Below are positions 1,485-60,509 of a stretch of 64,000 nt of DNA, piece by piece. Location of the stretch: the NCBI GenBank assembly GCA_963844625.1, contig CAWJPF010000020.1, forward strand, positions 52,946 through 116,945, written 5' to 3'. Position 1 is the stretch's first letter, and each line of letters opens with the position of its first letter. This DNA is from an uncultured Actinomycetota bacterium. Its GTDB lineage: Bacteria; Actinomycetota; Actinomycetes; Streptosporangiales; Streptosporangiaceae. Both the position numbers and the translations under genes were made by a program. The notes beneath the pieces were generated by a model that was given only the letters and a program-made list of their open reading frames with translations, did not search any database and was not told the origin of the DNA.

Positions 1485-1499
1485 TCGAAGGAGCCTTTC

Positions 1500-45450: not shown

Positions 45451-46062
45451 GTGACCGAGTATCTACCCGGGGGGCCGGCCTCCCGCGATCGGGGGAAAGC
45501 CATCTCCCCGGACTCCCGCGGCGAGGTCGGCGAGCTCGGCGAACAGATCCGGCTGGTGGCCCGCGGGGACGCGATGGCGTTCGACGCCGTCTACGAGCAG
45601 ATCGTCTCGTCGGTCTTCGGCGTCGTCAGGCGGGTCATCCGTGATCCGGCTCAGTCCGAGGAGGTCACCCAGGACGTCCTGCTCGAGGTCTGGCGTAACG
45701 CGGCCAAGTTCGATGCCGACCGGGGCAGCGCGATGGCCTGGGTGATGACGCTGGCCCATCGCCGGGCCGTGGACCGGGTCCGGTCGGTGCAGAAGGAATC
45801 CGAACGCGAACTCCGCGTCGCGACGGCCGACGTCCCCTATGACGAGGTGGCCGAGGCCGTCGAGTCCACTCTTGAGCGCGAGCGGGTCCGGCGCTGCCTG
45901 AGGTCTCTCACCGAACTGCAGCGCGAGTCCGTCACCCTGGCCTACTACGGCGGCTACACCTACGGCCAGGTCGCCAGCCTCTTGGGCGTGCCGACGGGGA
46001 CGATCAAGACCAGGATGCGCGACGCGCTGATCCGGCTACGGGACTGCCTGGGGGTGGCCTGA
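45451..46062 (+). CDS. sigK: ECF sigma factor, SigK-like
   Basis: 'FDAVYEQIVSSVFGVVRRVIRDPAQSEEVTQDVLLEVWRNAAKFDADRGSAMAWVMTLAHRRAVDRVR' is region 2, and '..LTELQRESVTLAYYGGYTYGQVASLLGVPTGTIKTRMRDAL' is region 4. The start is uncertain. Confidence 0.8.
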   Translation: MTEYLPGGPASRDRGKAISPDSRGEVGELGEQIRLVARGDAMAFDAVYEQIVSSVFGVVRRVIRDPAQSEEVTQDVLLEVWRNAAKFDADRGSAMAWVMTLAHRRAVDRVRSVQKESERELRVATADVPYDEVAEAVESTLERERVRRCLRSLTELQRESVTLAYYGGYTYGQVASLLGVPTGTIKTRMRDALIRLRDCLGVA

Positions 46063-46844
46063 TGAAACGGGAAGCGCACACCCTGGCCGGGGCGTACGCG
46101 ATGGACGCGATCTCCGAACCGGATCGTGCCCGGTTCGAGGCGCACCTGGCCCGGTGTGCGGAGTGCGCGCAGGAGACCGCCAGCCTGCGCGAGGCCACCG
46201 CCCGGCTGGCCGGCGCCACCGCGGTGACGCCGCCTCCGGGCCTGAAGGAGCGGGTGATGGCGGCGGCGGCCATGACCAGGCAGCATCCGCCCGTGACTAG
46301 TGACGCCGAACCCCCGGCCCGGTCGGCCGGGGGCGCCCGGGCCGGGGCCTGGCTCCGCGCGCTGGCCGGACGGGGCTGGCAGGTCCGCCTGGCGGTGGCG
46401 GCGGGCGCCGTGGCCGCCGTGATCGTGCTCGGCGCCGCGGTGGTGTTCGGGGTCAGCAACGGCACCATGCGGCAGCGGCTCAACCAGGCTCAGGTCAGCA
46501 GCCAGCAGATAGCCGCCGTGTTGACCGCGCACGACGCCGTCATGATGACCGGGACGGTGGCAGGCGGCGGAACGGCCACGATCGTGATGTCGCACGCCAG
46601 GCACGCGCTGGTGTTCACCGCCGCCGGGCTGCGCCCTCTGCCCACCTCCCGCGGCTACGAACTGTGGCTGATCGGCGCGGACGGCGACCGGGCGGTGGCC
46701 ATGCTCCGGCCGGGCAGTAACCAAATGACCGGCCCGGTGATCGCGTCCGGGCTGCGCTCGGGTGACCAACTCGCCCTTACCGCCGAACCGGCGGGCGGCA
46801 GCAACCGCCCCACCACCCCGATGATGCTCGACGTCGTGCTCTAG
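46062..46844 (+). CDS. rskA: Anti-sigma-K factor RskA-like (zf-HC2 N-terminus, single TM, RskA C-domain)
   Basis: 'LAGAYAMDAISEPDRARFEAHLARCAECAQE'. There is a TM segment 'VAAGAVAAVIVLGAAVVF'. The C-terminus is 'YELWLIGADG...LALTAEPAGGS'. It overlaps the sigma gene stop (TGATG). Confidence 0.8.
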   Translation: MKREAHTLAGAYAMDAISEPDRARFEAHLARCAECAQETASLREATARLAGATAVTPPPGLKERVMAAAAMTRQHPPVTSDAEPPARSAGGARAGAWLRALAGRGWQVRLAVAAGAVAAVIVLGAAVVFGVSNGTMRQRLNQAQVSSQQIAAVLTAHDAVMMTGTVAGGGTATIVMSHARHALVFTAAGLRPLPTSRGYELWLIGADGDRAVAMLRPGSNQMTGPVIASGLRSGDQLALTAEPAGGSNRPTTPMMLDVVL

Positions 46845-46945
46845 CGCGGCCGCGCTCGTCCGGCCGGGGCTGTCCATCCGGCCCGGCGCCGTTCGTTGTC
46901 GGGGTAACGGGCAGACGTTAGGGTCTGAGTCTGAGGAGGCAGCCG

Positions 46946-47317
46946 GTGAAATACATGCTGATTCACTGCATCGATGAGTCCGCCGAGCGGGCCCGCCGAC
47001 CCGAGGAGCAGCGGGAGGGCGCCCCGTCGATCGAATCCTGGCTGGCGGAGATGGAGGGCCGGGGCGTGCGCCTGCACGGTGACCGGCTGAGGTACGTCAG
47101 CGACGCCACTACCGTGCAGGTCCGTGACCGCGACCTGCTGGTCAGCGACGGGCCGTTCGCCGAGACCAAGGAACAGATCGCGGGGTACGACGTGATCGAT
47201 TGCGCCGATCTGGACGAGGCGATCGAGGTGGCGTCCAAGCACCCGACGGCCTGGTACGGCACCATCGAGGTCCGGCCGATCGCGGGTAATCACTGCGGGG
47301 ACGCCGTGCTCAGCTGA
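46946..47317 (+). CDS. YciI-family protein
   Basis: 'MKYMLIHCIDES...GPFAETKEQIAGYDVIDCADLDEAIEVASKHP' is the YCII pattern. Confidence 0.8.
   Translation: MKYMLIHCIDESAERARRPEEQREGAPSIESWLAEMEGRGVRLHGDRLRYVSDATTVQVRDRDLLVSDGPFAETKEQIAGYDVIDCADLDEAIEVASKHPTAWYGTIEVRPIAGNHCGDAVLS
47274..47306. repeat. 33-nt core at the yciI 3' end (direct repeat with 51149..51181; attL-like)
   Basis: GGCCGATCGCGG-GTAATCAC-TGCGGGGACGCCG compared with GGCCGATCGCGG-ATCACCAT-TGCGGGGACGCCG gives 29/33 identical with no indel. Confidence 0.6.
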
Positions 47318-47393
47318 GCCGGCCAGGGCCCGGCTGGCCTGTCTTCGCGAGCCTGCGTCCGAACCGGCTGATCGCCTTGTATGGTGCTATGTC

Positions 47394-47858
47394 GTGACGC
47401 TCAGAAGCACGATTTACGCCCGTATGGAGGAGATAAGCTTTCGTTCGGGCGCCGTCGCGGCCGTCGCGGTGCTCGTGGCCGCCGGAGGCGTGATCGCGCT
47501 CGCGGTCACGCTGAGCGCGCATGCCGCGACTAGCGCGGCCGTTCCGGGAGCGGTTGCCCGCTCCGCGGTGCCCTCGTCCCCGGCCCCTACCGCCCCGGCT
47601 CCTTCTTCGGCAGCGCCGCCGACCGCCGCGCCGTCGGCTAGGCCTTCGGCTCACCGGACTTTCCCGGTCCAGAGCTATCAGGCCCCGTCCCAGCAGGCCG
47701 TGGTTACGACGCCGCAGGCCTCGGCCTGGCCAGCCGCCGACCTCCCCAATCCTCACCGCACCCGCCCGCGTCGGGGCGCGCCGTGGCCACCCGGCCGGCT
47801 GGCCTCGCCCGGCCCCGTGAGCTCGCCGTGGGGCTGGTATTTCGGGACGCCTGGCTAG
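47394..47858 (+). CDS. Hypothetical single-pass membrane protein with Pro/Ala/Ser-rich extracytoplasmic tail
   Basis: 154 aa. The TM segment is 'AVAAVAVLVAAGGVIALAVTL'. The remainder is low-complexity, so coding status is moderately uncertain. Confidence 0.4.
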   Translation: MTLRSTIYARMEEISFRSGAVAAVAVLVAAGGVIALAVTLSAHAATSAAVPGAVARSAVPSSPAPTAPAPSSAAPPTAAPSARPSAHRTFPVQSYQAPSQQAVVTTPQASAWPAADLPNPHRTRPRRGAPWPPGRLASPGPVSSPWGWYFGTPG

Positions 47859-47886: not shown

Positions 47887-48402
47887 TCACCATTTCCGGC
47901 CGGGGGCCAGGTCCCGGCGGCCGGTCAGCACGAACCAGGTCATCAGCCCGGTGATATCGGCGAGGGCCGCGGCGGTACCGGGGATCAGCTGCAGCACGGC
48001 CAGCGACAGCGCGGCGGCGATGGCGGCGCGGATGGCCAGGCGCAGCGGGCGGCCGCGGCGGATCCGGGCCGGGAGCTGCCACAGCGCCCAGGGCGGCGCC
48101 CAGGGTAGGTCGGCGGGCGTCAGGTCACCGGCGGCGATGACGGGCAGCGGCACGGTGACCGGCTCGGCCTCGGCGCCGGCCAGTCCCGCCTGCCCGGCCA
48201 GGTCGGCATAGGCCTCGCTGCGGCTCCACGGGGTCCGCAGCTCGGCGTAGGCGGCCGAGGCGGCGGTGTACCGGGCCAGGTCCCCGCCGTCGGCGCGGTC
48301 GGGGTGGGTGGCGGCGGCCATCGCGCGCCAGGCGGCGCGGACCTGCTCATCGGTCAGGTCGGGGCGGGCGGGCAGGCCGAGCGCGTCGAACGGATTCATC
48401 AT
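47887..48402 (-). CDS. J-domain (DnaJ-like) protein with C-terminal membrane anchor
   Basis: 'NPFDALGLPARPDLTDEQVRAAWRAMAAATHPDRADGGDLARYTAASAAYAEL' is a J-domain with the HPD tripeptide. The C-terminus 'LAIRAAIAAALSLAVLQLIPG..ITGLMTWFVL' is hydrophobic. Confidence 0.7.
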   Translation of the reverse strand: MMNPFDALGLPARPDLTDEQVRAAWRAMAAATHPDRADGGDLARYTAASAAYAELRTPWSRSEAYADLAGQAGLAGAEAEPVTVPLPVIAAGDLTPADLPWAPPWALWQLPARIRRGRPLRLAIRAAIAAALSLAVLQLIPGTAAALADITGLMTWFVLTGRRDLAPGRKW

Positions 48403-48404
48403 CG

Positions 48405-50273
48405 TCAGCCGGCTCCGGGTCCGAAGACGTCATCGAGGCTGGCCGGGACCGCCGCGGCCGGGGTCGCGGGTTCGTGGCGGGGAACGGGTACGCGGGTCAC
48501 CGGCTCAGCGGCCGCGGCCGGGGCCAGCAGGGTGAGCGGGGACGGCTTGGGCCGGGCGACCTGGACGAAGGTGGCGGCGCCCTGGTGGATGTAGCAGGCC
48601 TGCCCGACCTCCTGGCGGCGGATGAGGTCGGGGTCGGCGATCAGGGCCTGCCGCTCGCGGGTGGTGCCCTCGTCGCCCCAGATGTTGCCGACCAGCTTGT
48701 GCGCGGTCTCGAGCACCCGCCGGGCCCCCGCCAGCGCCGCCAGCGGGTCGGGATAGGGGGTGCGCATGACCCAGATGCCGCCGTCGGCCGTGGCCGCGAT
48801 CCGGTACCGCTCGTCCTCGCATGAGCCCAGGCCCTGCCAGGACTGGGCCGAGACCTGCACGCCGATGCCGAGGGAGCGGCCGCGCTCGTACAGGTTCGAG
48901 AGCGGCACCCGGCCGGAAACCGCGGAGTAGTCATCGGCGGCCAGCAGCATGGCCCGGGGCTCGCCCGCCAGGTCCGTGGCGGCGTGCGCGGCCAGCTCGG
49001 TCAGTGCCATGGCCTGGGCCTCGGCGACTGAAGGTTCCCGGGTTCCTTCCAGGATGAAGTACCAGGCATCGGCGTCGGCCAGGGTACCCGGGCCGTCCAG
49101 CGCCGGACCGAGGCGGCCGAGCAGGGTGGCGTACCGGAGCTGGATATCGGGCAGGTGCCTGGCCGCCGCCCGGACCCAGGCCGCCTGCCCGGGATAGCGC
49201 GCGGGATCCCAGGCGGCGGTCAGCCAGCGGGCCTCCAGCCGGTCCAGGAACCCGGCCACATTCAGCGGCGGTCCGCAGGGCGCCGTAACCGCCAGGGTGA
49301 GGACGGCCTGCATGACGTCGGCGTAGTACGCGGCGGCCCCGGTGCCGCTGTCGATCATCTGGTAGAGCAGCACGGCCAGGTCATGCGGCGGGAGGTCCCA
49401 CAGGGACAGGCGGGCCTCGTCGGGCCAGATCGCGACCCGGCGGGCGCCCGCGCCGTACAGCAGGCGGCGGGTCCGGTTCGCCTTGCTGCGGGCATCGGCG
49501 CCGCCCTTGCAGTCCAGCACGATCAGCAACGGGCGCTTGCCGTGCCCGGCCCGGGCCGCGGTCAGCGCGGCGGTGAACCAGCCCGCCCACAGCCGGATCA
49601 TCAGGTTCGTCTTCCCGCTGCCGGTCGAGCCGACCACCACCATATGCCGGGCACAGGCGGTGAACGGGAGGCTGAAGACGGGATGCCAGCGGTGCCCGAT
49701 CGCGCGGATCGTACCGCCGACCGGGATCTGCCCGCCCCGGGCCAGCAGCGGGACCGCGCCGGGCGCGTCGGTCAGGGCCCGGGCGGTGCGGACCTGCCTC
49801 CTCCACTGCCTGGCGTCGAAGGTGATCGGTGCCGAGGCCGTGATCCCGCCCAGCCCGGTGGTGATCGCGTAGATCCGCCACGCCCACGCCAGCGCGGCCA
49901 ACGCCAGCCCGGCCGGGACGGCGACCGGGGCCACCAACACGAACGTGCGGGCCACGCTGATGCAGGTCAGGTGCTGCCAGCCGTGCTCGGTGTCGCTGAC
50001 CGGCGCCATGGCGACCGGTCGCCACGCCCGCAGCAACGCCGCCTGGGCCCCGAGCCAGACCGCGGCCGACGGCAGCGCCCAGGCGGCGGCGCGGCGCAGC
50101 CGGACCGGGGGCCAGCCGCGTAGCCACGCCGCGGCATACCCGGTCAGCGCCACCACCGTGATCGGCCACGCAGCGGCGGCGGCCGCGGCGGCCAGCAGCC
50201 ATTTGGTTACCTTGACCGCCTTGCGCGCCAGCCATAGCCATACCGTGATCTTGACCAGCGACCATACCGTCAT
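48405..50273 (-). CDS. VirD4/TraD-like coupling-protein-type ATPase (membrane-anchored P-loop NTPase)
   Basis: 622 aa with N-terminal TM helices and Walker A 'VVGSTGSGKTN'. It has a Walker-B-like 'MLLAADDYS', followed by 'LYERGRSLGIGVQVSAQSWQGLG', typical of T4CP/TraD C-terminal motor domains. Confidence 0.65.
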   Translation of the reverse strand: MTVWSLVKITVWLWLARKAVKVTKWLLAAAAAAAAWPITVVALTGYAAAWLRGWPPVRLRRAAAWALPSAAVWLGAQAALLRAWRPVAMAPVSDTEHGWQHLTCISVARTFVLVAPVAVPAGLALAALAWAWRIYAITTGLGGITASAPITFDARQWRRQVRTARALTDAPGAVPLLARGGQIPVGGTIRAIGHRWHPVFSLPFTACARHMVVVGSTGSGKTNLMIRLWAGWFTAALTAARAGHGKRPLLIVLDCKGGADARSKANRTRRLLYGAGARRVAIWPDEARLSLWDLPPHDLAVLLYQMIDSGTGAAAYYADVMQAVLTLAVTAPCGPPLNVAGFLDRLEARWLTAAWDPARYPGQAAWVRAAARHLPDIQLRYATLLGRLGPALDGPGTLADADAWYFILEGTREPSVAEAQAMALTELAAHAATDLAGEPRAMLLAADDYSAVSGRVPLSNLYERGRSLGIGVQVSAQSWQGLGSCEDERYRIAATADGGIWVMRTPYPDPLAALAGARRVLETAHKLVGNIWGDEGTTRERQALIADPDLIRRQEVGQACYIHQGAATFVQVARPKPSPLTLLAPAAAAEPVTRVPVPRHEPATPAAAVPASLDDVFGPGAG

Positions 50274-51004
50274 AGCGCCGCCTCAGCGGAGAACGCGGCG
50301 GCAGGCAGGTCGCGGATTACGACCCGGGCCTGCTCGCCAGCTGGTAGTCCGCTCGCGGCGCGGGTCACGACCGGACGGGCGGCCGGTGCGGTCAGGTAGA
50401 TCACCTGGGCGTACCGCATCGGCGCCAGCAGCCCGGCCATGATCCCGGTGGTCCTCGCGACCGGCTTGGGCGTCAGCTCCACCTCGACCGCCCACACCTG
50501 GCCCGCGTAGGGGCGGCCCTCGATGCTGGGCCAGTGAATCTCCGCATCCGCCACGTGCCCGCGGCCCAGCGGCGGCCGGACCGCGCGCAGCCGCCGCTCG
50601 GAGTGCCACCACGGGCGCCCGTCCCGCCACGCCGGGCTGGCCTGCATCCACAGCCTCGCAGCCAGGACCGCGCGGATGTGCGCCAGCCGGGCCAGCGCCG
50701 GCTCGGTCGCGGGAAACCCCAGCCCGGTCGCGGTCATCCCGTCCCGTGTCAGCCAGCACCACCCCGGCCCTGGCCCGAGCCGGCCGGTAGCGGCGTACCC
50801 GATGCGGCGCCACCGGGCCGTGATCGACGGCAGCCGCTCCGGCTGAACCCGCAGCGCCGCGGCCAGCAGATCGAACGGCACGCCGTAATGCTCCCCGGCC
50901 AGCAGCAGTCCGTCGATGTCCCGCTGGCTGAGCCGGACCGTGTCGGCCCCGGCGCGGCGGGTCGGCCTGGCCGAGGGAACCGTGTTATGTGCCCGTGCCG
51001 GCAT
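50270..51004 (-). CDS. Replication-relaxation family protein (wHTH + C-terminal nuclease-like domain)
   Basis: 'LSQRDIDGLLLAGEHYGVPFDLLAAAL...ARWRRIGYAATGRL...LAHIRAVLAARLW...HVADAEIHW...VWAVEVELTPK'. An ATGA overlap links it to the downstream ATPase gene. An alternative upstream start lies at 51139. Confidence 0.6.
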   Translation of the reverse strand: MPARAHNTVPSARPTRRAGADTVRLSQRDIDGLLLAGEHYGVPFDLLAAALRVQPERLPSITARWRRIGYAATGRLGPGPGWCWLTRDGMTATGLGFPATEPALARLAHIRAVLAARLWMQASPAWRDGRPWWHSERRLRAVRPPLGRGHVADAEIHWPSIEGRPYAGQVWAVEVELTPKPVARTTGIMAGLLAPMRYAQVIYLTAPAARPVVTRAASGLPAGEQARVVIRDLPAAAFSAEAAL

Positions 51005-51148
51005 GATGTCCCCAGGTGCTACTGCAGTCACATGAATCTCAGTTGCCCCGTGTGTCCAGAACCACACAGGATGTGACGATTGTTCCGCCGGAAACCGGTG
51101 CCGGATGTGGTTGCGCGCTCCCCGTAAGCGCATCGTCATGATTGGTAG

Positions 51149-51181
51149 GGCCGATCGCGGATCACCATTGCGGGGACGCCG
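51149..51181. repeat. Second copy of the yciI 3'-end core (attR-like; orphan, no gene body upstream)
   Basis: It would encode PIADHHCGDA in register with YciI PIAGNHCGDA. Similarity to yciI stops about 5 nt upstream of the block. Confidence 0.6.
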
Positions 51182-51315
51182 CGCGGCTAGCTGACCCGGC
51201 AGACCAGCGCAGACCCCGTTTATTCCGAACGTGCATGGGTGCTTCGATCCGGAAACCCTCCGCGCCCGCAGGATGCGAGGGCTGGCCGCCGGCTGGACGC
51301 GTTCGGCGCGCCTGG

Positions 51316-51786
51316 CTAGGCGCCCGGCCGGTGCGGCATGCCGATGCGGCAGCAGGCCTGGACCGGGCTGGGGAGGGGCGCGTGCTCAGCGGCCAGGGCT
51401 GAGACGGCCCGGGCCGTCTCAGGCGGCATCGGCGCCACCCGCTCCTGGCTGACGTGCAAGAACATCAGCTCGCAGGTTGCGGCCAGCCGCTCGGCGCACC
51501 TCATCTCGTGGAACACCTGCAGCCGTTTGGCGTCGTGGCCCAGCAGCCGCGTCCGGTAGTTCAGCGCGGCGCCCTCGGTGACTCCGGACAGGAAGCACAG
51601 GTGGCTTTCCGCCGTGTAGATGCCACAGCCGGTCCGCGCACGGTAGGCGGCGCCCACGCCGAGGTGGTCGAGCAGCGCCTCGGTGGCCTCGGTGAACGCA
51701 ATGAAGTAATAGGCGTCCATCATGTGGCCGTTGTAGTCGATCCACTCCTTCGGGACGACTCGCCCGCCGGTATCCAGCCCGCTCAT
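51316..51786 (-). CDS. Hotdog-fold acyl-CoA thioesterase (betainyl-CoA thioesterase-like)
   Basis: 156 aa from the ATG at 51786 ('..EWIDYNGHMMDAYYFIAFTEATEALLDHLG...YTAESHLCFLSEV-like'). It has an ATGA overlap with the ABC ATPase stop. The longer 361-aa ORF is an artefact. Confidence 0.7.
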   Translation of the reverse strand: MSGLDTGGRVVPKEWIDYNGHMMDAYYFIAFTEATEALLDHLGVGAAYRARTGCGIYTAESHLCFLSGVTEGAALNYRTRLLGHDAKRLQVFHEMRCAERLAATCELMFLHVSQERVAPMPPETARAVSALAAEHAPLPSPVQACCRIGMPHRPGA

Positions 51787-53615
51787 CCAGGCGCGATCCC
51801 GGGGACGTCGGCCAGCAGCTGGCGGGTGTAGGCGTGCTGGGGCGCGGTCAGTACCTGCGTCACCGAGCCGCGCTCGCAGACCTCTCCGGCGCTGATCACC
51901 GTCACGTCGTCCGCGATGCTGCGCACCAGCGGCAGGTTGTGCGTGATGAACAGCAGCGCGAGTCCGCGTTCGGCCTGCAGCCGCAGCAGCAGCTCGACGA
52001 TCGCCGCCTGCACCGACACGTCCAGCGCCGAGGTGACCTCGTCGCAGACCAGCAGGTCGGGTTCGAGGACCAGGGCGCGGGCCAGCGCGACCCGTTGGCG
52101 CTCCCCGCCGGAAAGCTCGTCGGGGTAACGGGCGGCGAAGGATTCCCGCAGCGCGACGGAGGTCAGCGCATCCCCGATCCGCTGCCGGTGTTCCGCGCCA
52201 GGGAGCTTGTGAAAGTGCGCGAGCGGATGCCCGACGATCTGACCGACGGTCTGCCGGGGGTTGAGCGAGGAGTACGGGTTCTGCGAGACGAACTGGATCC
52301 GGCGCAGCTGGTCTTGCGTCCGGCCGCGGACGCCGGGCGGGAGATCCTGGCCGTCGAACTTGATGGTCCCTGACCAGTCCTTGTGCAGCCCGACGACGCA
52401 CCTGGCCAGCGTGGTCTTGCCCGAGCCCGAGGTGCCGACGATCGCGACCGACTGCCTGGCTCCCACGACGAGGTTGACGTCATGCAGCACCAGCTTGTTC
52501 GTGTAGGAGACCGACACGCCGCTGATGGTGAGGACCGGCTCCTCGGCCGGGGGCGCCGGGCGCTGGCTGGCCAGCGTGGCGGTGCTGGACAGCGCCTTGA
52601 TCTCCACGGCGCGCACGCACCGGGCGACGTGCCCAGTCTCGGACACGGTGATGAGTTCCGGCTGGCGCTGCTCGCACTGGGCGACCGCGAACTCGCACCG
52701 CGGCTGGAAGAAACAGCCGGCTGGACGGCTGCCAGGCCGTGGCGGACTGCCGGCCATGCCGTGCAGCTCGTAGGTGCCTTCCAGCACAGGCACGGCCCGC
52801 ATTAGCCCCCGGGTGTACGGATGGGCCGGGGCTGTGAACAGCTCCCGCGCCTGACCCATCTCGATCAGCCGTCCGGCGTACAGGACCGCGACATGGTCAG
52901 CGATCTCGGCTACCACGGCGAGGTCGTGGGTGATATAGACGGCCGCTACCTGGTAGGACCGGCACAGACCCCGTACGGTGTCCAGGACGCGGCGCTGGGT
53001 GGTGACATCGAGGCCGGTCGTGGGCTCGTCAAGCACGATCAGCTGTGGTCGGCAGGCGAAGGCCATGGCCAGGGCGACCCGCTGCTGCTGGCCGCCGGAA
53101 AGCTGGTGCGGGTAAGCGGCCAGGATCGGAGCCGGATCCTCCAGCCCGGCTTCGGCCAGCACGTCGGTCAGCCGGTCCGGGTCGCCGCCGTGGATGGTAA
53201 AGACCTCGCGCAGCTGAGTGCCGACCTTCAGCACCGGGTTCAGCGCGCTGCCCGGATCCTGCGGGACGTAGGCGATCGTGCGGCCGCGCAGCTTCTGCAG
53301 CTCGTGTTCGGGGAGTGCCAGGATGTCCCGGCCGTCGACGAGCACCTTGCCGCCGCCGAGCCTGAGCCCGCGCTTGAAGAGCCCGAGCAAGGCGAGGGCG
53401 ACCGTCGTCTTGCCCGATCCCGATTCGCCTACCAAACCGAGCACGTGCCCGGGCTGGACGGTGAACGATATCTCGTCGATGACGTCCGCGTCCGGCCGCC
53501 CGCGCCGCGGCGTCATCAGGATGCGCAGGTTCTGTACCGCGAGCCGGGGGGTGGCGTGGCCGGTTTCCGCTCGGCCCGCCGTGGTCACCGGGATCTCTTC
53601 GGACGGGGCGGTCAT
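51783..53615 (-). CDS. Fused DppD/DppF-type ABC ATP-binding protein (two NBDs)
   Basis: 610 aa from the ATG at 53615, which has an ATGA overlap with the permease stop. There are two Walker A motifs ('GESGSGKTT', 'GTSGSGKTT') and two signatures ('LSGGQQQRV', 'LSGGERQRV'). Confidence 0.85.
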   Translation of the reverse strand: MTAPSEEIPVTTAGRAETGHATPRLAVQNLRILMTPRRGRPDADVIDEISFTVQPGHVLGLVGESGSGKTTVALALLGLFKRGLRLGGGKVLVDGRDILALPEHELQKLRGRTIAYVPQDPGSALNPVLKVGTQLREVFTIHGGDPDRLTDVLAEAGLEDPAPILAAYPHQLSGGQQQRVALAMAFACRPQLIVLDEPTTGLDVTTQRRVLDTVRGLCRSYQVAAVYITHDLAVVAEIADHVAVLYAGRLIEMGQARELFTAPAHPYTRGLMRAVPVLEGTYELHGMAGSPPRPGSRPAGCFFQPRCEFAVAQCEQRQPELITVSETGHVARCVRAVEIKALSSTATLASQRPAPPAEEPVLTISGVSVSYTNKLVLHDVNLVVGARQSVAIVGTSGSGKTTLARCVVGLHKDWSGTIKFDGQDLPPGVRGRTQDQLRRIQFVSQNPYSSLNPRQTVGQIVGHPLAHFHKLPGAEHRQRIGDALTSVALRESFAARYPDELSGGERQRVALARALVLEPDLLVCDEVTSALDVSVQAAIVELLLRLQAERGLALLFITHNLPLVRSIADDVTVISAGEVCERGSVTQVLTAPQHAYTRQLLADVPGIAPG

Positions 53616-54466
53616 GTCGTGGCCCCCTCGACGGCGAGGTCTACCAGCGGATCCGGCTCGGTGGAACGGCGGCCGACGCCCAGCGAGGCCCGCGCCACCG
53701 CGTCGGTGAACGTGTTCACGCCGATGGTGAACAGCGCGATGAGGATGGCCGGCATGAGCACGCCCCACGGGTTCGCGATCAGCCCGACCCGGTTCTCGTT
53801 GATCATCAGCCCCCAGCTCGCCGCGGGCGGCTGCAGGCCGAAGCCGAGGAAGCTCAGTCCGGCGATGACCAGCATGGAGTAGGTGAGCCGCAGTCCGATC
53901 TCGACCATGAGCACCGAGGTCAGGTTCGGTAGCACGTCCCGGCGGATGATCCGGCGGCCCGGGATGCCGAGGATCTGCATGGCCTTGACGAAATCGCGCT
54001 CGCTGATGTCCAGCGCCGCCGCGCGGGTCACCCTGGCCACCTGCGGCGCGTGCGAGATGGCGACGGCCAGCACGATCAGCCAGATCTTCGGGCCCAGGAT
54101 GCTGACCAGCAGCAGCGCGAATACGAGCTGCGGGAACGCCAGGAACACGTCGACCACGCGCATGATCACGCTGTCCCACACTCCGCCTGCGTAAGCGGCG
54201 ATCACGCCGAGCGCTGCGCCGGCGGCGACGCCGAGCGCGGTCGCGGCGGCCGCCATGAGCAGCAGCTCCCAGCCGCCGTCGAGGGTCCGGCTCAGCACGT
54301 CCCGGCCGAGTACGTCACCGCCGAGCCACGCGATGCTAGAAGCCCGGGCAAACGGCCTCGTCACGAACTCGGTGCTTGAGTAAGGGGCGACAGCCGGGCC
54401 GATCGCGGCCGCCAGGACCACGCAGCCGGCGATGACCAGCCCGATGGCGCCTCGCGGTGTCCGCAC
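53612..54466 (-). CDS. ABC transporter permease (DppC/OppC-like)
   Basis: 284 aa and hydrophobic, with the EAA-like region '..RAAALDISERDFVKAMQILGIPGRRIIRRDVLPN'. Confidence 0.85.
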   Translation of the reverse strand: MRTPRGAIGLVIAGCVVLAAAIGPAVAPYSSTEFVTRPFARASSIAWLGGDVLGRDVLSRTLDGGWELLLMAAAATALGVAAGAALGVIAAYAGGVWDSVIMRVVDVFLAFPQLVFALLLVSILGPKIWLIVLAVAISHAPQVARVTRAAALDISERDFVKAMQILGIPGRRIIRRDVLPNLTSVLMVEIGLRLTYSMLVIAGLSFLGFGLQPPAASWGLMINENRVGLIANPWGVLMPAILIALFTIGVNTFTDAVARASLGVGRRSTEPDPLVDLAVEGATT

Positions 54467-54520
54467 CGCGCGGCCGAGTACCGCGAATGCCTCGGGTCTG
54501 CGTCGCCACGGGCACCTCCG

Positions 54521-55537
54521 TCAGGATCTGGGCAGCCGCCGCCGCGGGCTCGCGGCGAGCGATATCACGTCGGTCAAGATATTGACGACAATGTAAAAGG
54601 CCGCGAGGACCAGCACGATGAACTGGATCACCGGGATGTCCCGGTCGGAGACCGCCGACACCAATGCTTGCCCGAGCCCCGGGTAGTTGAACATGTACTC
54701 CACCACCACCACCCCGCCGGCCAGGTAGAGGAAGCTCAGTCCGATCACCTGGATCGTCGGCGCGATGGCGTTCGGCAGCGCGTGGACGAGCAGCACCCGC
54801 CACCTCGGCACGCCCTTGAGCCGGGCCATCTGTACGTAGTCGCTTTCCAGCGCGTCGATCATCGACGCCCGCATCATCCGGAAGACATACGGCACGACGA
54901 CGATGACCAGGGTCGCCACCGGGAGCACGAGCTCTCTCGGGTTCGACCACGGCGCAGTTCCCGGCACGAACACCGAAACTGCGGGAAACAGGTGCCATAC
55001 CACCGCGGCGAAGAAGATGATCAGGACCACCGCTACCACGAACTCCGGCAGCGCGGTGACGGCCAGGGCTGTGACCGACAGCACGTGATCGAATACGCTG
55101 TCCCTGCGCGCCGCGGCGAGCACGCCGAGTCCCACGCCGATCAGCGTGCCGATCGCGCCCGCCAGGATCACGAGCACCAGCGAGTTCAGGATCCGCCCGC
55201 CGACGAGCGTGCCCACCGGTGCTCCGTTGGCCAACGATTTGCCGAAGTTGCCGTGCAAGAGGCCGGTAAGCCACGTCCAGTACTGCTCGACCGCGGGCTT
55301 GGTCAGGCCCAGCTGCACCTCCAGCGCGTGCAGGCGCTGCGGGGTCGCCGTGTTCAGCAGTACTGCGCTGGCGGCGTTGCCCGGCAGCGTCTGCGTCGCG
55401 GCGAACACGAGGATCGACACCAGCAGCAGCGTGAGCAAGCCGATCAGGCTGCGGTAGATCAGCATGTGCCGAATGGGATGCGGCTTGCGCGGCTGGGGCG
55501 CTTTCGCCTCTTTCGTCTCCGCTGTCGCAGTTGTCAC
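54521..55537 (-). CDS. ABC transporter permease (DppB/OppB-like)
   Basis: 'MLIYRSLIGLLTLLLVSILVFAATQTLPGN...' and 'DYVQMARLKGVPRWRVLLVHALPNA'. The GTG at 55537 makes a GTGA overlap with the SBP stop. An alternative ATG lies at 55465. Confidence 0.8.
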   Translation of the reverse strand: MTTATAETKEAKAPQPRKPHPIRHMLIYRSLIGLLTLLLVSILVFAATQTLPGNAASAVLLNTATPQRLHALEVQLGLTKPAVEQYWTWLTGLLHGNFGKSLANGAPVGTLVGGRILNSLVLVILAGAIGTLIGVGLGVLAAARRDSVFDHVLSVTALAVTALPEFVVAVVLIIFFAAVVWHLFPAVSVFVPGTAPWSNPRELVLPVATLVIVVVPYVFRMMRASMIDALESDYVQMARLKGVPRWRVLLVHALPNAIAPTIQVIGLSFLYLAGGVVVVEYMFNYPGLGQALVSAVSDRDIPVIQFIVLVLAAFYIVVNILTDVISLAASPRRRLPRS

Positions 55538-57129
55538 GATAGCCACACATTCTTGAAGTCGTAGGCGTTCAGCGACAAGCCGATCTTGGACGGCACCAGC
55601 CCGCCGACGTTGGCGCTGTAGCCGTCGATCACCGGCGGGAAGAACGGGATGATATAGCCGCCCTCGTCGTATTCGATCTGCTGCATCTCGTGCGCGAGCT
55701 CGGTACGCAGCGAGTCGTCGACGGTGGCGATGGCCTGGCTGTACAGCGAGTTGTACCGGGTGTTGTCCCAGTGCGTCTCGTTGAACGAGGCCGTCGGCAG
55801 CGTGGCCAGCGACACCTGCGGCAGGTAGAAGTTGTAGAACCAATAGTCCTGGGCGAACTGCCACTTCAGGTAGTTGGTGCCGTAGAAGTCGTTCACGGTG
55901 ACGTCGTCCACGCTGACCGATATCCCGGCCGCGGAGGCCTGCTGGGCAAGGACCTGGGCGGCCAGGACCGTGCCCTGCGCGATGTCGGAGGTCACCAGCT
56001 GGACCTGCAGGCCCTCGGCGCCCGCCGCCTTCAGCAGCGACTTGGCCTGGTCGATGTCCTGCTCGCGCTGGGGCAGGCCGTGGTCGTACTCCGGCGCCCA
56101 GATCCCGAACACGTCGTTGCCCAGGGTGCCGTAGCCGCCAAAGACTAGATCGAGCATCTGCTGGCGGTCCACGACCAGGCGCATGGCCTGCCGGATGCGC
56201 ACATCGCTAAACGTCCCGGTGTCCACCCGCATGGTGAACGGATTCCAGCCGCCGCCGGCCGAGACCAGGACGTTCTTACCCTCGCCCTGCACTTCGGAGA
56301 TGACATCTTCGCTCAGTAGGTTGACCACGTTGACCTGGCCGGCCAGCAGCGCGTTCACTTGGCTGGTCTGGTCGCTGTAGTCGGTGATGACGATCTCGTC
56401 CAGGTACGGCCGCCCGGACTGCCAGTAGCCGTCGTAGCGGACGAAGACCGACTGCGTGCCCGGGCTGAAGCTCTTCAGCCGGAACGGGCCGGTACCGATG
56501 GGTGCGGCCGGGTTGAAGCCGACCGGGATGATGTCGGAGTAGCCGGGAATGGCCAGCGCCTGGTGCAGGGTCGCGAACGGCGTCGAGCAAGGAATCCGCA
56601 CCGTGTGCTGGTCGAGCTTGGTCATGTTCTTGGCGTCGATCGAGGCCAGGCCGGCCGCGGCGGCCGCCGGGGCCTTCGGGTTCAGGATCTGCCGGAAGGT
56701 GTAGATGACATCGTCGGCGGTCAGGTCCTTGCCATTATGGAAGGTGATCCCCTGCGCGATCCGCACCGTCCACTCGGTGGCCTTGGCGTTCGGGGTGAGT
56801 TCCTCGGCCAGCACGAATACCGGCTGCGCGTCCGAGTTAAGGCCAACCAGCGGCTCGTACAGGTTGTCGATCCTGGAGAAGTCCACGTTGGTGATGGCGT
56901 TCAGCGGATCCAGCGTGTCGGCGCTCGACCCGCCGGTCAGGCCAGCTCGTAGCGTGCCGCCGTACCTGGGCTTGCCCGCGGTCGACGTGGTGAACGCCTT
57001 TATCGTGTTGCCCGTTCCGCATCCGCTGAGCAGGCCGCCGCCGAGCAGCCCGCCCGCTCCGGCAGCCCCCAGGGTCAGGCCGGTCTTGAGGAAATCCCGG
57101 CGGCTGACTCTCATTTCTCTTTCCGGCAT
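55534..57129 (-). CDS. ABC substrate-binding protein, family 5 (peptide/nickel/opine type), Tat/lipoprotein-like signal
   Basis: 'RRDFLKTGLTLGAAGAGGLLGGGLLSGCG' is the signal region. The protein is 531 aa and carries SBP_bac_5-like motifs ('GTGPFRLKSFSPG'). Confidence 0.85.
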   Translation of the reverse strand: MPEREMRVSRRDFLKTGLTLGAAGAGGLLGGGLLSGCGTGNTIKAFTTSTAGKPRYGGTLRAGLTGGSSADTLDPLNAITNVDFSRIDNLYEPLVGLNSDAQPVFVLAEELTPNAKATEWTVRIAQGITFHNGKDLTADDVIYTFRQILNPKAPAAAAAGLASIDAKNMTKLDQHTVRIPCSTPFATLHQALAIPGYSDIIPVGFNPAAPIGTGPFRLKSFSPGTQSVFVRYDGYWQSGRPYLDEIVITDYSDQTSQVNALLAGQVNVVNLLSEDVISEVQGEGKNVLVSAGGGWNPFTMRVDTGTFSDVRIRQAMRLVVDRQQMLDLVFGGYGTLGNDVFGIWAPEYDHGLPQREQDIDQAKSLLKAAGAEGLQVQLVTSDIAQGTVLAAQVLAQQASAAGISVSVDDVTVNDFYGTNYLKWQFAQDYWFYNFYLPQVSLATLPTASFNETHWDNTRYNSLYSQAIATVDDSLRTELAHEMQQIEYDEGGYIIPFFPPVIDGYSANVGGLVPSKIGLSLNAYDFKNVWLS

Positions 57130-57216
57130 GTCTGCTCCCGGCTGTCGCGAAGCGGTGGCCGCTATGAATCCGGATGCCGCGGTGTTCTTCTGGCGTGGGC
57201 TCCCATGACTTCATGA

Positions 57217-57231
57217 GTTCACGATGCGAAC
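57217..57231. promoter_or_regulatory. Operator-like motif GTTCACGATGCGAAC (+ TAATGTGCA) upstream of the transporter sub-operon
   Basis: It is shared with 60029..60043 (14/15 identical) and has inverted GTTC...GAAC arms. Confidence 0.5.
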
Positions 57232-57295
57232 ATAATGTGCATAATGTGATTTAGGCTGATGGTAAGGACGGCCGCATCGTGTGTCAAGGATCACA

Positions 57296-58297
57296 TCAGC
57301 GGATCGCAGGCCCGGCGGGCGCAGGCGCCGTGGTGGGCTCGGCCGGAGGCGCGACCGCGTAACGTTCCGCCAGCACCAGCAGTTCCGCGAGGAACCCGTC
57401 GCGCAGCCGTTCCAGCTCGGCGACCGACCGGCCGTCGGCCTCCCGCAGGCAGCCCTCGACCATCTGGTCCCGCAGCTCCGCGGTCAGTGGCGGCGCCGGC
57501 AGCCGGGTCCAGGGTTCGAGCAGCGCGGCACCGAAGTGGTCAAGCATATGAGCCATGCCGCCACCGCCCCCGGCCAGGTGGAAGGTGAGGCAGGGGCCCA
57601 TCAGGGCCCAGCGCAGGCCGGGGCCGAAGGCGATCGAGGCGTCGATCTCTTCGACGGTGGCCTCGCCCGCCGCCACCATGTGCAGTGCCTCCCGCCACAT
57701 GGCCTCCTGCAGCCGGTTACCGACGAAGCCGGGGAGCTCCCTGGACAGGCGCAGCGGCCGCTTGCCTGTGCTCGCGTAAAAGTCGGCCAGCCAGCCGACC
57801 GAGGCGGGATCGGTCTGCTCGCCGCCCACCACCTCGACCACTGGTATGAGGTAGGGCGGGTTAAACGGGTGACCGACCACGCAGCGTTCCGGATGCGCGC
57901 AGTCGGCCTGCAACATGGTCATCGCGAACCCTGACGTGCTCGATGCGATGATCACCTCGGGCCGGGTGGCGCGGTCGATGTCGGCCAGCACCCGGCGCTT
58001 GACCGGTCCGACCTCCGGCGCGTTCTCCTGCACCACGTCGGCGTCGGCCACGGCCGCGTCCAGCCGGTCATGGAAGGTCAGCCGCTCCGGGCTAGCGCCC
58101 GCGCGCAGTCCGATCCGCTCAAGTAGCGGCCAGTTGGCTGCCGCCGTGCGGAGCAGGTCGCCGCGTGCGGTCGGGGCCGGATCGTAGACGTCGACGTCTA
58201 GCCCGGCCCGCAGGTAGTGCAGTGCCCACCCGCCGCCGATCACTCCCGCTCCGACGATTCCCACCCGGCGTGCCTGGTCCGGTTGCACAGCGGTCAT
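57296..58297 (-). CDS. L-carnitine dehydrogenase-like 3-hydroxyacyl dehydrogenase (NAD-dependent)
   Basis: 'VGIVGAGVIGGGWALHYLRAGLDVDVYDP...VQENAPE...IASSTSG...VGHPFNPPYLIPVVEVVGG...ELPGFVGNRLQEAMWREALHMV..GEATVEEIDASIAFGPGLRWALMGP' closely follows the carnitine 3-dehydrogenase pattern. Confidence 0.8.
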   Translation of the reverse strand: MTAVQPDQARRVGIVGAGVIGGGWALHYLRAGLDVDVYDPAPTARGDLLRTAAANWPLLERIGLRAGASPERLTFHDRLDAAVADADVVQENAPEVGPVKRRVLADIDRATRPEVIIASSTSGFAMTMLQADCAHPERCVVGHPFNPPYLIPVVEVVGGEQTDPASVGWLADFYASTGKRPLRLSRELPGFVGNRLQEAMWREALHMVAAGEATVEEIDASIAFGPGLRWALMGPCLTFHLAGGGGGMAHMLDHFGAALLEPWTRLPAPPLTAELRDQMVEGCLREADGRSVAELERLRDGFLAELLVLAERYAVAPPAEPTTAPAPAGPAIR

Positions 58298-58331
58298 CCC
58301 TGCGACCTCTCACCCGTCTTAGTGACCGCGG

Positions 58332-59093
58332 CTAGCCGCATGTCTTGTCCAGCCAGCCGGTAATCAGGTGGCACAGCATGGCGCGGTGCCAGGAGAAGGC
58401 GTGGTTCGCGCCGTCCACTTCGACGTAGCGGCACGCCGGGCCGGCCTGCGCCCGCAGTTCGCGGGCCTGTTCCACCGGAACCCAGCGGTCCGCGGTGCCG
58501 TGCACCACGAGCAGCGGCCGCGGCGAGAGGGCCGCCGCGGCCTCTACCCCGTCCATTCGCTCCGCTACCTCGTCGCGCTGGGCGGCGAACTCCCCGGGCG
58601 TGGTCGCGAGAAACCGGGTGAACTCGTTCTCGATCTGGTCCGGGTTCAGTGTGAGCCCGGCGCCCAGGCGCGCTGCCGCTCCGTACACGGCGACTGCGCG
58701 CAGCCTGGGTTCGGTGGCGGCGGTCACGATAGCCGCCCAGCCGCCGAGGCTGTGCCCGGCCACCGCGATCCGGCCGGGGTCAACCCGCGGGCAGCCGGTC
58801 AGGTAGCGGACCGCCGCGAGCACGTCGCGCGGGATGGTACGCAGGTCGTACCGGCCCGGGCTACCCCAGCAGCCGCGGTAGTGAAAGAGCAGCGAGTTCC
58901 AGCCGCGATCCCTCAGCGTGACGGCCAGGTCAAGGTTCTTTTCCAGGCCCGGGCAGCCGTGCAGCAGCAGCGCGGTCGGTTTGGGCTCATCGCCGCGGGC
59001 CAGGTAGAGGGTGCCGACGAGACGGTGCCCATCGCTGTCGAACGTGACCCCGGTGATGCCCTCGTGTTGCGGGTGCGGGTCAGTAGCCCACAT
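58332..59093 (-). CDS. Alpha/beta hydrolase (dienelactone hydrolase / S9-like esterase)
   Basis: 'ALLLHGCPG...', the nucleophile elbow 'GHSLGG', and 'VVHGTADRWVP'. It overlaps the BKACE stop by 14 nt. Confidence 0.75.
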   Translation of the reverse strand: MWATDPHPQHEGITGVTFDSDGHRLVGTLYLARGDEPKPTALLLHGCPGLEKNLDLAVTLRDRGWNSLLFHYRGCWGSPGRYDLRTIPRDVLAAVRYLTGCPRVDPGRIAVAGHSLGGWAAIVTAATEPRLRAVAVYGAAARLGAGLTLNPDQIENEFTRFLATTPGEFAAQRDEVAERMDGVEAAAALSPRPLLVVHGTADRWVPVEQARELRAQAGPACRYVEVDGANHAFSWHRAMLCHLITGWLDKTCG

Positions 59094-60012: not shown

Positions 60013-60028
60013 CGTGCCACCTCCTGGT

Positions 60029-60043
60029 GTTCACGATACGAAC
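60029..60043. promoter_or_regulatory. Operator-like motif GTTCACGATACGAAC (+ TAATGTGCA 13 nt downstream) upstream of the BKACE sub-operon
   Basis: It lies 17 nt upstream of the BKACE start codon region and is paired with 57217..57231. Confidence 0.5.
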
Positions 60044-60167
60044 GTTCTGTTACTAATGTGCAGCGTATATGCCCTCTTCGCCGCCGGTCAATATGCCCGC
60101 TCCGACGGTTCGGTGCCCGAACCCGGATGAGAGCCGAAGGTGAAGGCAACCCTGCCAGGGGTTCGGG

Positions 60168-60509
60168 TCAATTCGCGTGTGCCTCCCATTGGGGCTTGGT
60201 CAGCGCGTACTCCACCTCGCCGTGCTCGAAGCCTTCTATGGCGTCAGTTCCCTCATAAGGGAAGGTGCGCACGAGGACCAGGCCGGACTTCTCCAGCACG
60301 CGCCGGGAGGCGGCGTTGACCGTCATCGTGTGCGCGAATACCCGCTGGATCTCGAGGTCGCTGAAGCCTTTTCGGATCAGGGCACGTGACCCTTCGGTGG
60401 CGTAGCCCTGGTTCCATGCGGCCCTGCGAAGCCGGTATCCAAGGTTATCCACGTCGTGCTCGGTAAACCGGCGCAGCCTCAGGCGGTCGGTTTCCAGGAA
60501 GATATGCAT
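60168..60509 (-). CDS. GNAT N-acetyltransferase (RimJ/RimL-like), apparently internally deleted
   Basis: The 113-aa protein reads 'LETDRLRLRRFTEHDVDNL' and then jumps directly to 'GYRLRRAAWNQGYATEGSRALI...'. About 60 aa expected between these motifs are absent. Confidence 0.55.
   Translation of the reverse strand: MHIFLETDRLRLRRFTEHDVDNLGYRLRRAAWNQGYATEGSRALIRKGFSDLEIQRVFAHTMTVNAASRRVLEKSGLVLVRTFPYEGTDAIEGFEHGEVEYALTKPQWEAHAN

Follow-up and report, generated by a model that had tools for sequence, protein, structure and literature searches.

The 64,000-nucleotide stretch of contig CAWJPF010000020.1 analysed here (assembly GCA_963844625.1, an uncultured Actinomycetota bacterium of the Streptosporangiaceae), in the following called the window, carries a triad of tightly coupled minus-strand genes, which code for a putative relaxase (gene 1), a membrane-anchored ATPase resembling the coupling protein TrwB (gene 2), and a membrane J-domain protein (gene 3), and which follow a conserved non-coding leader (Table 1). 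The best reading of this triad is that of the core of small integrative mobilisable elements (IMEs), here without an integrase and with a dedicated Hsp70-recruiting partner; that triad and leader together form a MOBC-type cassette of 3.3 kb for DNA processing and coupling has, in our judgement, about an even chance of being correct. Among the three hypotheses put forward in an earlier note on this DNA, a minimal mobilisation module has turned out to be the best supported. The pairing of a relaxase with a type IV coupling protein (T4CP) is of a known kind, because MOBC relaxases are encoded close to a coupling protein of their own, plasmid pAM373 being an example, and for Replic_Relax relaxases such a pairing is established biology (PMC12857230, PMC3357382). 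The unusual part of the triad is the conserved membrane J-protein: in a full-text literature search, J-domain, coupling protein and relaxase have not been met together in any paper. The family assignments of all three proteins rest on their relatives, on profiles and on one structure model, with the window copies themselves scoring below the Pfam thresholds.

Gene Organization and Conserved Co-Occurrence

The three minus-strand open reading frames (ORFs; 47887-48402, 48405-50273, and 50270-51139) have a third-position GC content (GC3) of 0.85-0.94, which is typical of genes in a ~70% GC genome, and have therefore been taken as real genes. The GC content over the triad is 0.75 vs ~0.70 around it, and the window has ~70% GC overall. 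Both junctions described earlier have been read directly in the sequence: an ATGA at 50270-50273, in which the gene-1 stop codon overlaps the ATPase start, and the TGA stop codon of the ATPase, which is followed by 2 nt and then by the ATG of the J gene at 48402. Likewise, the motifs GSTGSGKT, THPDRADGG, and HVADAEIHW...AVEVELTPK, which the earlier note had quoted, are all present in the translations. The coordinates given there hold for all three ORFs, except that the 289-aa reading of gene 1 is probably overlong. Homologues of gene 1 are 244-250 aa long, and their similarity to the 289-aa ORF is confined to its C-terminal ~83%. Ahead of the ATG at 51004, the DNA can be aligned across loci as a non-coding stretch, the leader, which closes with GGGGA-N6-ATG. 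Because the homologues are shorter and this conserved leader provides a ribosome-binding site (GGGGA), the gene probably starts at 51004, giving 244 aa, rather than at 51139.

Relatives of the ATPase are numerous (>2000 at E ≤ 1e-3, or 1072 cluster representatives at 50% identity, with the best 120 being 72-90% identical), and few of them are named: nearly all are listed as 'hypothetical protein', and two as 'Helicase HerA, central domain'. A scan of the GTDB representative genomes with eight closer ATPase sequences has yielded 273 confirmed relatives. The best 80 of these 273 all belong to Streptosporangiaceae or unclassified Actinomycetes/Actinomycetota metagenome-assembled genomes (MAGs), plus one Trebonia MAG; eight MAGs contain two to four copies each. 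By tblastn, about 75 of 87 related loci, which all come from Streptosporangiaceae/Trebonia-like genomes and soil metagenomes, have been found to keep the order gene 1, ATPase, J gene; most of the remaining loci run into a contig end, lack gene 1 (four loci), or have extra genes ahead of the J gene (a few). Such insertions between ATPase and J gene have been seen in a group of more distant copies (subfamily B, see below), namely a Ser/Thr protein kinase gene in L067 (8060-9598) and a PHO4 phosphate transporter gene in L071 (8453-9601), with the J gene retained downstream in both loci.

The arrangement persists over large distances. Four relatives with 33-39% ATPase identity keep the order of a gene-1 homologue, the ATPase and a small ORF, and the gene-1 homologues of the two distant loci tested have been confirmed by hhalign (E = 1.5e-39 and 3.9e-25). 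The distant small ORF carries a DnaJ domain (PF00226) in L088, L089, and L173; that of L174 has no Pfam match. A DUF2637 membrane protein, a family mentioned in only two papers in our literature search, is encoded nearby in three of these four loci. A 32%-identical ATPase (L090) lies on a plasmid- or AICE-like contig (AICE, actinomycete integrative and conjugative element) together with ParA, PriCT_1, an integrase fragment, and DUF2637. The survey of co-occurrence proposed in the earlier note has accordingly been strongly positive, and a triad that falls apart in other genomes, which the note had named as evidence against its idea, is clearly not what is seen.

Gene 2: A TrwB-Like Membrane ATPase

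Searches of the ATPase against Pfam, NCBIfam, PADLOC, and PHROGs and of a 22-sequence profile against the PDB have given P-loop-level matches only, and a structure model has therefore been needed to classify the protein. With the curated T4CP profiles of Pfam and NCBIfam it stays below every threshold: TrwB_AAD_bind (13.9 bits vs a cutoff of 20.5) and SXT_TraD (16.8 bits vs 366) cover the Walker A region only, and the former is matched faintly by distant relatives of the ATPase as well. FtsK_SpoIIIE (Pfam) reaches 13 bits only, and PADLOC-DB 2.0 has returned only Walker-A-level matches to HerA/mad/GajB. The AlphaFold2 (AF2) model, which has been built from an alignment of 22 sequences, is confident, with a predicted local distance difference test (pLDDT) score of 83.6. 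In Foldseek its top 20 matches are all TrwB chains (E 3e-10 to 1e-8, template modelling (TM) score 0.55-0.57, 415-467 columns), the best being 1e9s (E = 3e-10, TM 0.56), and are followed with slightly weaker scores by HerA, the DndH C-domain, the H. pylori T4CP Cag-beta, and VirB4.

TrwB as the top structural match and a hydrophobic N-terminus agree well with the T4CP-like ATPase with N-terminal transmembrane helices that had been proposed from the sequence. Hydropathy places hydrophobic segments at residues 25-45 and 101-132, and the model has long helices over residues 3-138 and then a strand/helix domain; according to this model, the N-terminus is a membrane anchor ahead of a cytoplasmic nucleotide-binding domain. 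The Walker A motif of the window protein is intact (GSTGSGKT), G218, G220, and K221 are invariant and D447 is nearly invariant in relatives down to 28% identity, and D447 is likely the Walker B aspartate. Furthermore, the family profile and the pAM373 coupling protein align in hhalign (E = 5e-5) over the C-terminal third of the latter. We conclude from the modelled fold that the ATPase is a divergent member of the TrwB/VirD4-HerA-FtsK fold, closest to the coupling proteins, and predict it to be a T4CP-like DNA translocase. The N-terminal anchor, the RecA-like domain with Walker A and B, and the overall fold are common to TrwB/VirD4 and the window protein, which in contrast scores below the T4CP thresholds, is matched nearly equally by HerA, DndH, and VirB4, and has no partner type IV secretion system (T4SS) in the loci examined.

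Gene 1: A Putative Replic_Relax/MOBC-Like Relaxase

The window had been described as lacking any MOB-family relaxase, which is wrong because the family of gene 1, PF13814 Replic_Relax, is the Pfam equivalent of the MOBC relaxase profile in CONJscan (Table 1 of PMC5357655). The replication-relaxation-type C-domain that had been recognised earlier has been borne out by the relatives: PF13814 is matched by 8 of 22 of them (best E = 5.4e-5) and is found as precomputed annotation on three database relatives (P0426, P0438, P0494). Judged by these matches, the gene-1 family is a distant Replic_Relax member at the edge of the PF13814 profile. Replic_Relax has been placed in the PD-(D/E)XK superfamily by Steczkiewicz et al. 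(PMC3424549), and the residues H150, D153, E155, E174, E176, and K180, which are invariant across the 22 relatives down to 45% identity, match a catalytic motif of the PD-(D/E)XK type. An hhalign comparison with the replication-relaxation protein of pAM373 is marginal (E = 1.3e-3, probability 18%) and has the motifs in register, pairing HVPDAE...WAIEAELTPK of the gene-1 family with fvaDf...WsFEIELTmK of pAM373 as well as the N-terminal halves of the two proteins. TraX of pAD1 and other MOBC relaxases resemble restriction endonucleases, have a winged helix at the N-terminus, and bind to repeats located 70-120 bp from the nic site (PMC12857230, PMC6499999); in the N-terminal region of gene 1, which the earlier note calls wHTH-like, HTH_Crp_2 is matched weakly by 2 of the 22 relatives. 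PADLOC-DB 2.0 has given nothing for gene 1 beyond AbiEi at E = 0.022 with the overlong 289-aa reading, and this match covers residues 21-66 of that reading, mostly upstream of the likely start. Gene 1 is best described as a putative relaxase or site-specific nuclease, distantly Replic_Relax/MOBC-like.

The MOBC modules of pAD1/pAM373 (TraX with the T4CP TraW) and CloDF13 (MobC with MobB) resemble the triad in having a Replic_Relax-type relaxase of ~240-260 aa with an active site of the PD-(D/E)XK type, whose gene lies near that of its own membrane-anchored T4CP-type ATPase, and a D...E-x-E-L-T-x-K pattern that aligns between gene 1 and the pAM373 protein. In pAM373, which has been typed MOBC, the replication-relaxation gene is ~0.9 kb (two small genes) away from the T4CP gene and on the same strand. 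Gene order and spacing in these modules are unlike those of the triad, and their sequence similarity to gene 1 is marginal. Whereas pAM373 has a full set of conjugation genes, the window locus has none within 36-61 kb, the part of the window covered by our Pfam annotation. A J-domain protein is neither annotated on pAM373 nor mentioned in the literature found on MOBC systems.

Gene 3: A Divergent Membrane J-Domain Protein

The J-protein is composed of a J domain (residues 4-62, HPD at 33-35), a variable linker, a PARIRxGRP motif, a hydrophobic anchor at about residues 119-150 (hydropathy), and a DLAPPP tail, with motif and tail being conserved in the C-terminal half. Pfam DnaJ scores 22.7 bits vs the 27.8 cutoff on the window protein (E = 1.1e-4, model positions 2-60 of 63), PF00226 is matched by 13 of 14 relatives, and in the PDB the family profile finds nothing but J domains. 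In distinct relatives the HPD tripeptide is nearly invariant (H 79/79, P 79/79, D 77/79), the window copy being THPDR at residues 32-36; PADLOC-DB 2.0 has no match. The J-domain with HPD and a hydrophobic C-terminus named in the earlier note is consequently well founded, and by its sequence gene 3 codes for a true, though divergent, J-domain protein.

DjlB and DjlC of E. coli are type-III J proteins with an N-terminal J domain and a C-terminal membrane anchor. Their layout is like that of gene 3, with an N-terminal HPD J domain, a C-terminal anchor, and neither Gly/Phe nor zinc-finger regions. Kinship in sequence is not detectable beyond the J domain, and gene 3, unlike DjlB/DjlC, is translationally coupled to a DNA-translocase-like ATPase.

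The Conserved Leader and Its Boxes

The leader of ~150 nt is sharply bounded: homology between unrelated loci starts abruptly at its distal end, and the flanks beyond are unrelated between loci. It contains two conserved boxes separated by a GC-rich variable spacer of ~35 nt. Box A is an imperfect palindrome (GTAA..CAT-GACG-ATG..TTAC), whose 18-nt core TCATGACGATGCGCTTAC occurs once in the window, at 51141-51124 on the minus strand, and in ~30 loci precedes gene 1 by ~136 nt. Box B, also given as GCGGAACAATCGTCACATC, includes ATCGTCA, to which the TGACGAT of box A is inversely complementary. An RNA element has been ruled out, as the leader has no Rfam match and shows no covariation in RNAalifold, and its conservation is at the level of the DNA sequence. 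A scan of the leader for sigma-70 promoters and intrinsic terminators has found none.

Since the leader is conserved at the sequence level, recognition by a protein is expected, either as operator, as origin of transfer (oriT), or as both. From its sequence and position, the leader is a candidate operator/promoter and a candidate oriT. The oriT sites of MOBC systems lie upstream of the relaxase gene, where the triad has its conserved non-coding leader. In the loci without gene 1 (L026, L027, L036, and L044, at about 5790-6000 in each), the leader motif is found ~150-215 nt upstream of the ATPase start, and L036 has in addition a reversed gene-1 fragment and a second leader motif 5.5 kb upstream.

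Mobile-Looking Copies

Loci with unrelated flanks share 79-81% DNA identity over a region that starts within a few bases of the core of box A and extends at most about 45 nt beyond the J stop codon. In L018 (1887-8372), two diverged triads follow each other head to tail with a period of 3245 bp, box A of the second copy coming immediately after the J stop codon of the first. In 20 of the 87 loci, a gene on the same strand, 0.5-3.5 kb 3′ of the J gene, encodes a large serine recombinase (Resolvase + Recombinase + Zn_ribbon). In one MAG, the main block shared by its two copies (L049/L053) consists of leader, triad, and recombinase, and in another MAG the block shared by L038 and L045 consists of these parts plus an upstream gene. 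The recombinase-bearing copies look like integrative mobilisable elements of 5.5-7 kb, whereas the integrase-less ones, including that of the window, are either relics or dependent on functions provided in trans.

IMEs, e.g., those of streptococci (Coluzzi et al. 2017), are small and combine relaxase, T4CP, and integrase, as the 20 recombinase-bearing relatives do; they also have variable insertion sites and several copies per genome, as found in the triad family. The PF13814/MOBC class has been found among IMEs (PMC5357655). The triad differs in that the window copy has no integrase, one paralogue is fixed, and a J-domain gene is added.

Some observations concern the surroundings of individual copies. 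A motif TGCCTCCGGCGGGGCC stands just after the J stop codon in L014, L019, L024, L036, and L042; L014 and L024 have a downstream serine recombinase and the other three do not, and the motif might act as a terminator or belong to an attachment site. Downstream of its first triad, L042 contains another ATPase, truncated at the N-terminus, and a further J gene. Beside the triad in L005 (12546-16101) lie genes for a 738-aa HATPase_c_3 protein and a DUF4062 protein and then several transposases, which is possibly a defence or variable island.

The closest relative of the window copy, L007 (89% identical), shares with it the triad and the side with the YCII, RskA, and sigma factor genes. On the leader side, L007 has 306 bp vs 10.4 kb in the window (51144-61549). 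This 10.4-kb block includes genes for a 4HBT thioesterase, an Opp-type ABC transporter, a 3-hydroxyacyl-CoA dehydrogenase, an alpha/beta hydrolase, BKACE, and an IclR regulator; it begins with a fragment of a YCII 3′ end and has one boundary exactly at the end of the triad leader. It is either an island inserted beside the cassette, or L007 has undergone an adjacent deletion. In the window, a 52-nt imperfect direct repeat brackets spacer and triad. Its first copy is the 3′ end of the YCII gene (46946-47317), and its second copy starts 5 nt beyond the distal end of the leader and encodes PIADHHCGDAA vs PIAGNHCGDAV in the YCII gene. With an alignment score of 26.5 vs a null maximum of 17 in 2948 random comparisons, the two copies in the window compare with zero expected by chance; the second copy is absent from L007. 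The arrangement has the classic look of an integration into the 3′ end of a gene, which we treat as no more than suggestive.

A further stretch of the window (923-2390), with a MarR gene (938-1411, minus strand) and an alpha/beta hydrolase gene (1452-2390, plus strand), matches the flanks of the recombinase-bearing triad element in L038 (10761-12228) with 89.5% DNA identity. This homology stops exactly at the hydrolase stop codon (2390), so that the window appears to hold an unoccupied version of the insertion site, of which only one boundary is definable.

Evidence Against a Mobilisation Cassette and Alternative Readings

A number of results weigh against a MOBC-type mobilisation cassette. 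The window gene-1 protein has no match in Pfam or NCBIfam, and none to PF13814 even at E ≤ 10. Its AF2 model, derived from an alignment of 36 sequences, is poor (pLDDT 64), and Foldseek has returned nothing significant with it, for which reasons no conclusion on the fold has been drawn; the C-terminal domain is modelled with a strand-strand-helix-strand topology (pLDDT 75-96), and the N-terminal half is predicted to be helical at a pLDDT of 35-70 only. The structure search on AlphaFold models suggested in the earlier note has thus led to TrwB (E = 3e-10) for the ATPase and to no significant match for gene 1. For the ATPase itself, the resemblance to HerA in Foldseek is nearly as good as that to TrwB. 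In the four gene-1-less loci the core TCATGACGATGCGCTTAC immediately precedes the ATPase, and the leader might serve as no more than a promoter/operator; its role is at least partly in expression, because these four loci keep it before the ATPase. No close relative has been found in 72,556 plasmids (PLSDB) or 50,697 phages (INPHARED), the best plasmid match being a 26%-identical ORF of a Herpetosiphon plasmid. The annotated neighbourhood (36-61 kb) contains no integrase, replication, T4SS channel, or AICE gene, rep, int, kor, and spd genes included, which agrees for this part of the window with the absence of T4SS channel and AICE genes reported earlier. T4SS-type conjugation is reported to be scarce in Actinobacteria, where MOBF and MOBQ relaxases were thought to dominate (PMC3429521). 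No flanking repeat comparable to that of the window has been detected in 32 triad loci tested (best score 17.5 vs 26.5), by which flanking direct repeats have been ruled out as an attachment-site (att) signature of the family; they are a peculiarity of the window. Finally, a subfamily of the triads is chromosomally fixed, as set out further below.

The likeness to HerA raises the question of a defence or exclusion module, in which a HerA/FtsK-like membrane ATPase and a PD-(D/E)XK nuclease would detect phage or plasmid DNA entering the cell and degrade or expel it, and the J-protein would couple the response to Hsp70. HerA, DndH-C, TdpAB, and the Nezha HerA-Sir2 complex are indeed among the structural matches, the active site in gene 1 is of a nuclease type, variable regions that hold STAND-type NTPase, DUF4062, or transposase genes surround some of the copies, and the distribution is patchy and multi-copy. 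We nevertheless regard this as quite improbable: the best structural match is a coupling protein and not HerA, the gene-1 family is a relaxase family (PMC5357655), and PADLOC has given P-loop-level matches only, with none for gene 1 beyond E = 0.02. Moreover, a conserved cis leader travels with the genes, as expected of an element that acts on its own DNA, and one paralogue has a fixed chromosomal position.

That fixed paralogue is subfamily B (~50% identical to the window ATPase), which always divergently adjoins a DUF3145 gene; its site is flanked by a nucleoside hydrolase gene on one side and AHSA1/phosphodiesterase/DUF5998 on the other. In metagenome contigs with a DUF3145 at least 83% identical, the triad has been found in every locus, and in many at 64-73% as well, and the triad identity falls in parallel with that of DUF3145 (from 94% to 64%), which therefore indicates vertical inheritance. 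Subfamily B looks like a useful chromosomal operon rather than a selfish element, and this synteny has weakened the reading of the triad as a purely mobile element. The family consequently includes both element-like and resident versions: one paralogue is fixed beside the DUF3145 gene and vertically inherited, and the window copy is in the dispersed group (subfamily A).

One may extend the resident state to the whole family and regard the triad as a vertically inherited operon that has been domesticated from conjugation genes, with the dispersed copies being ordinary paralogues. Its function would be membrane DNA or protein handling in mycelial Streptosporangiales, e.g., the movement of chromosomal or plasmid DNA between hyphal compartments or into spores. 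Besides the constant linkage of subfamily B to DUF3145 and its housekeeping-type flanks (nucleoside hydrolase, OsmC, phosphodiesterase, DUF5998), this would account for the position of the window copy among housekeeping genes without an integrase and for the catalytic motifs retained in all three proteins, which indicate purifying selection. We consider it rather unlikely for the family as a whole, because subfamily-A copies have unrelated flanks at ~80% DNA identity and occur two to four times per genome, tandem copies are present in one locus, a serine recombinase is linked in 20 loci, and distant relatives are found in plasmid- or AICE-like contexts.

Proposed Mechanism and Comparison With Single-ATPase Transfer

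For a mobilisation cassette, which we prefer, the following mechanism may be postulated. Gene 1 would be a sequence-specific DNA-binding nuclease related to the restriction-endonuclease-like relaxases, which binds the conserved leader boxes, autoregulates the operon, and nicks or cuts there. The TrwB-like ATPase, membrane-anchored and presumably hexameric, would receive the nucleoprotein complex and pump the DNA out, and the exit route towards another cell might be the mating channel of another element or hyphal contacts. The J-protein would sit in the same membrane with its J domain in the cytoplasm and would recruit DnaK/Hsp70 to the complex of ATPase and relaxosome, where DnaK might assemble or disassemble the hexamer or the relaxosome, or keep the relaxase unfolded for export; this role of DnaK has been inferred from the general role of J domains. 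A stronger version, in which the J-protein is obligatory for this family of coupling proteins, the triad alone is a minimal T4SS-independent transfer machine of mycelial actinomycetes, and the fixed paralogue makes the chromosome a built-in donor whose DNA leaves from the leader, appears distinctly unlikely to us. Hsp70 would then be brought to the membrane ATPase for its assembly, or for unfolding or hand-over of the relaxase.

The DNA exit route is also the point at which a self-sufficient, T4SS-independent conjugation apparatus has to be considered, which would be functionally analogous to the TraB systems of Streptomyces. The membrane pore would be made up of the ATPase itself, selection and cutting of the DNA at the leader would fall to gene 1, the J-protein and DnaK would assemble the pore, and the chromosomal copies would serve as built-in transfer origins. 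In line with this, no T4SS channel (VirB4-like) gene has been detected near any copy examined, including that on the plasmid-like contig L090. Long hydrophobic helices are predicted in the N-terminal region of the ATPase, the cassette is extremely compact and has its own cis site, and the hosts belong to a mycelial actinomycete lineage for which a transfer of double-stranded DNA by a single ATPase is known (PMC3429521). AICEs and the TraB plasmids of Streptomyces, from the same phylum, likewise have a single membrane DNA-pump ATPase as their only large transfer gene, and in AICEs DUF2637-type proteins and many small ORFs occur, as they do near distant relatives of the triad. The triad differs from them by a T4CP-like ATPase that is not FtsK/TraB-like, a nuclease-type relaxase candidate, and the lack of rep, int, kor, and spd genes in the window locus. 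With a fold nearer to the T4CPs, which normally depend on a channel, than to FtsK/TraB, and only 13 bits for FtsK_SpoIIIE, we hold such a self-sufficient apparatus to be improbable.

If the triad indeed is a mobilisation cassette, an abundant and unannotated family of MOBC-like relaxases and coupling proteins would be added to the Actinomycetota, and a dedicated Hsp70 co-chaperone would be a conserved third component of a coupling complex in DNA transfer. Relaxosome remodelling and relaxase unfolding at the coupling protein would become testable in a system of three genes. The recombinase-bearing, integrase-less, tandem, and fixed versions would represent a natural series for the decay or domestication of mobilisation modules, and leader motif and triad would be easy annotation markers in genomes of soil actinomycetes. 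The interest lies in the conserved J-domain partner and in the coexistence of mobile-looking and fixed paralogues.

Chromosomal Neighbourhood and Feature Coordinates

The flanks of the window triad are ordinary chromosomal genes: an extracytoplasmic function (ECF) sigma factor, an RskA-type anti-sigma factor, and the YCII gene on one side (plus strand, 45451-47317), and a 4HBT thioesterase, an Opp-type ABC transporter, a 3-hydroxyacyl-CoA dehydrogenase, BKACE, and an IclR regulator on the other.

Table 1. Positions of the triad, its leader, and adjacent features in the window.
Feature	Position	Strand	Basis or remark
Gene 1, putative relaxase	50270..51004	-	244 aa; mechanical ORF reaches 51139 (289 aa)
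Gene 2, membrane-anchored P-loop ATPase (622 aa)	48405..50273	-	AF2 model and Foldseek
Gene 3, type-III J-domain protein (171 aa)	47887..48402	-	Pfam DnaJ, HPD, hydropathy
Conserved non-coding leader 5′ of gene 1	51005..51151	-	Alignments of 5 and 25 loci
Box A	51122..51143	-	Consensus GTAATCATGACGATGCGCTTAC; window copy CCAATCATGACGATGCGCTTAC
Box B	51068..51090	-	GGCGGAACAATCGTCACATC; nearly invariant columns 63-87 of the 25-locus alignment
Direct repeat, copy 1 (3′ end of YCII gene)	47274..47325	+	Local alignment
Direct repeat, copy 2 (diverged YCII-type 3′-end fragment)	51149..51200	+	Local alignment
Possible membrane-anchored Pro/Ala-rich ORF in YCII/J-gene spacer (154 aa)	47394..47858	+	Hydropathy

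The possible ORF in the spacer between the YCII and J genes has an atypical codon-position GC (GC3 0.81, second-position GC 0.72) and no Pfam match. This spacer is common to the window and L007 and has no counterpart in other triad loci, and is therefore placed outside the conserved cassette; the homology of the window to other loci ends at 47843. Elsewhere, the sole tRNA call of ARAGORN in the window, a tRNA-Leu (CAG) of 91 nt at 22503-22593 (plus strand), falls inside a 720-aa ORF with high GC3 (22063-24225, minus strand), where the window reaches its highest GC content (0.76), so that one may deal here with a false tRNA or an over-called ORF.

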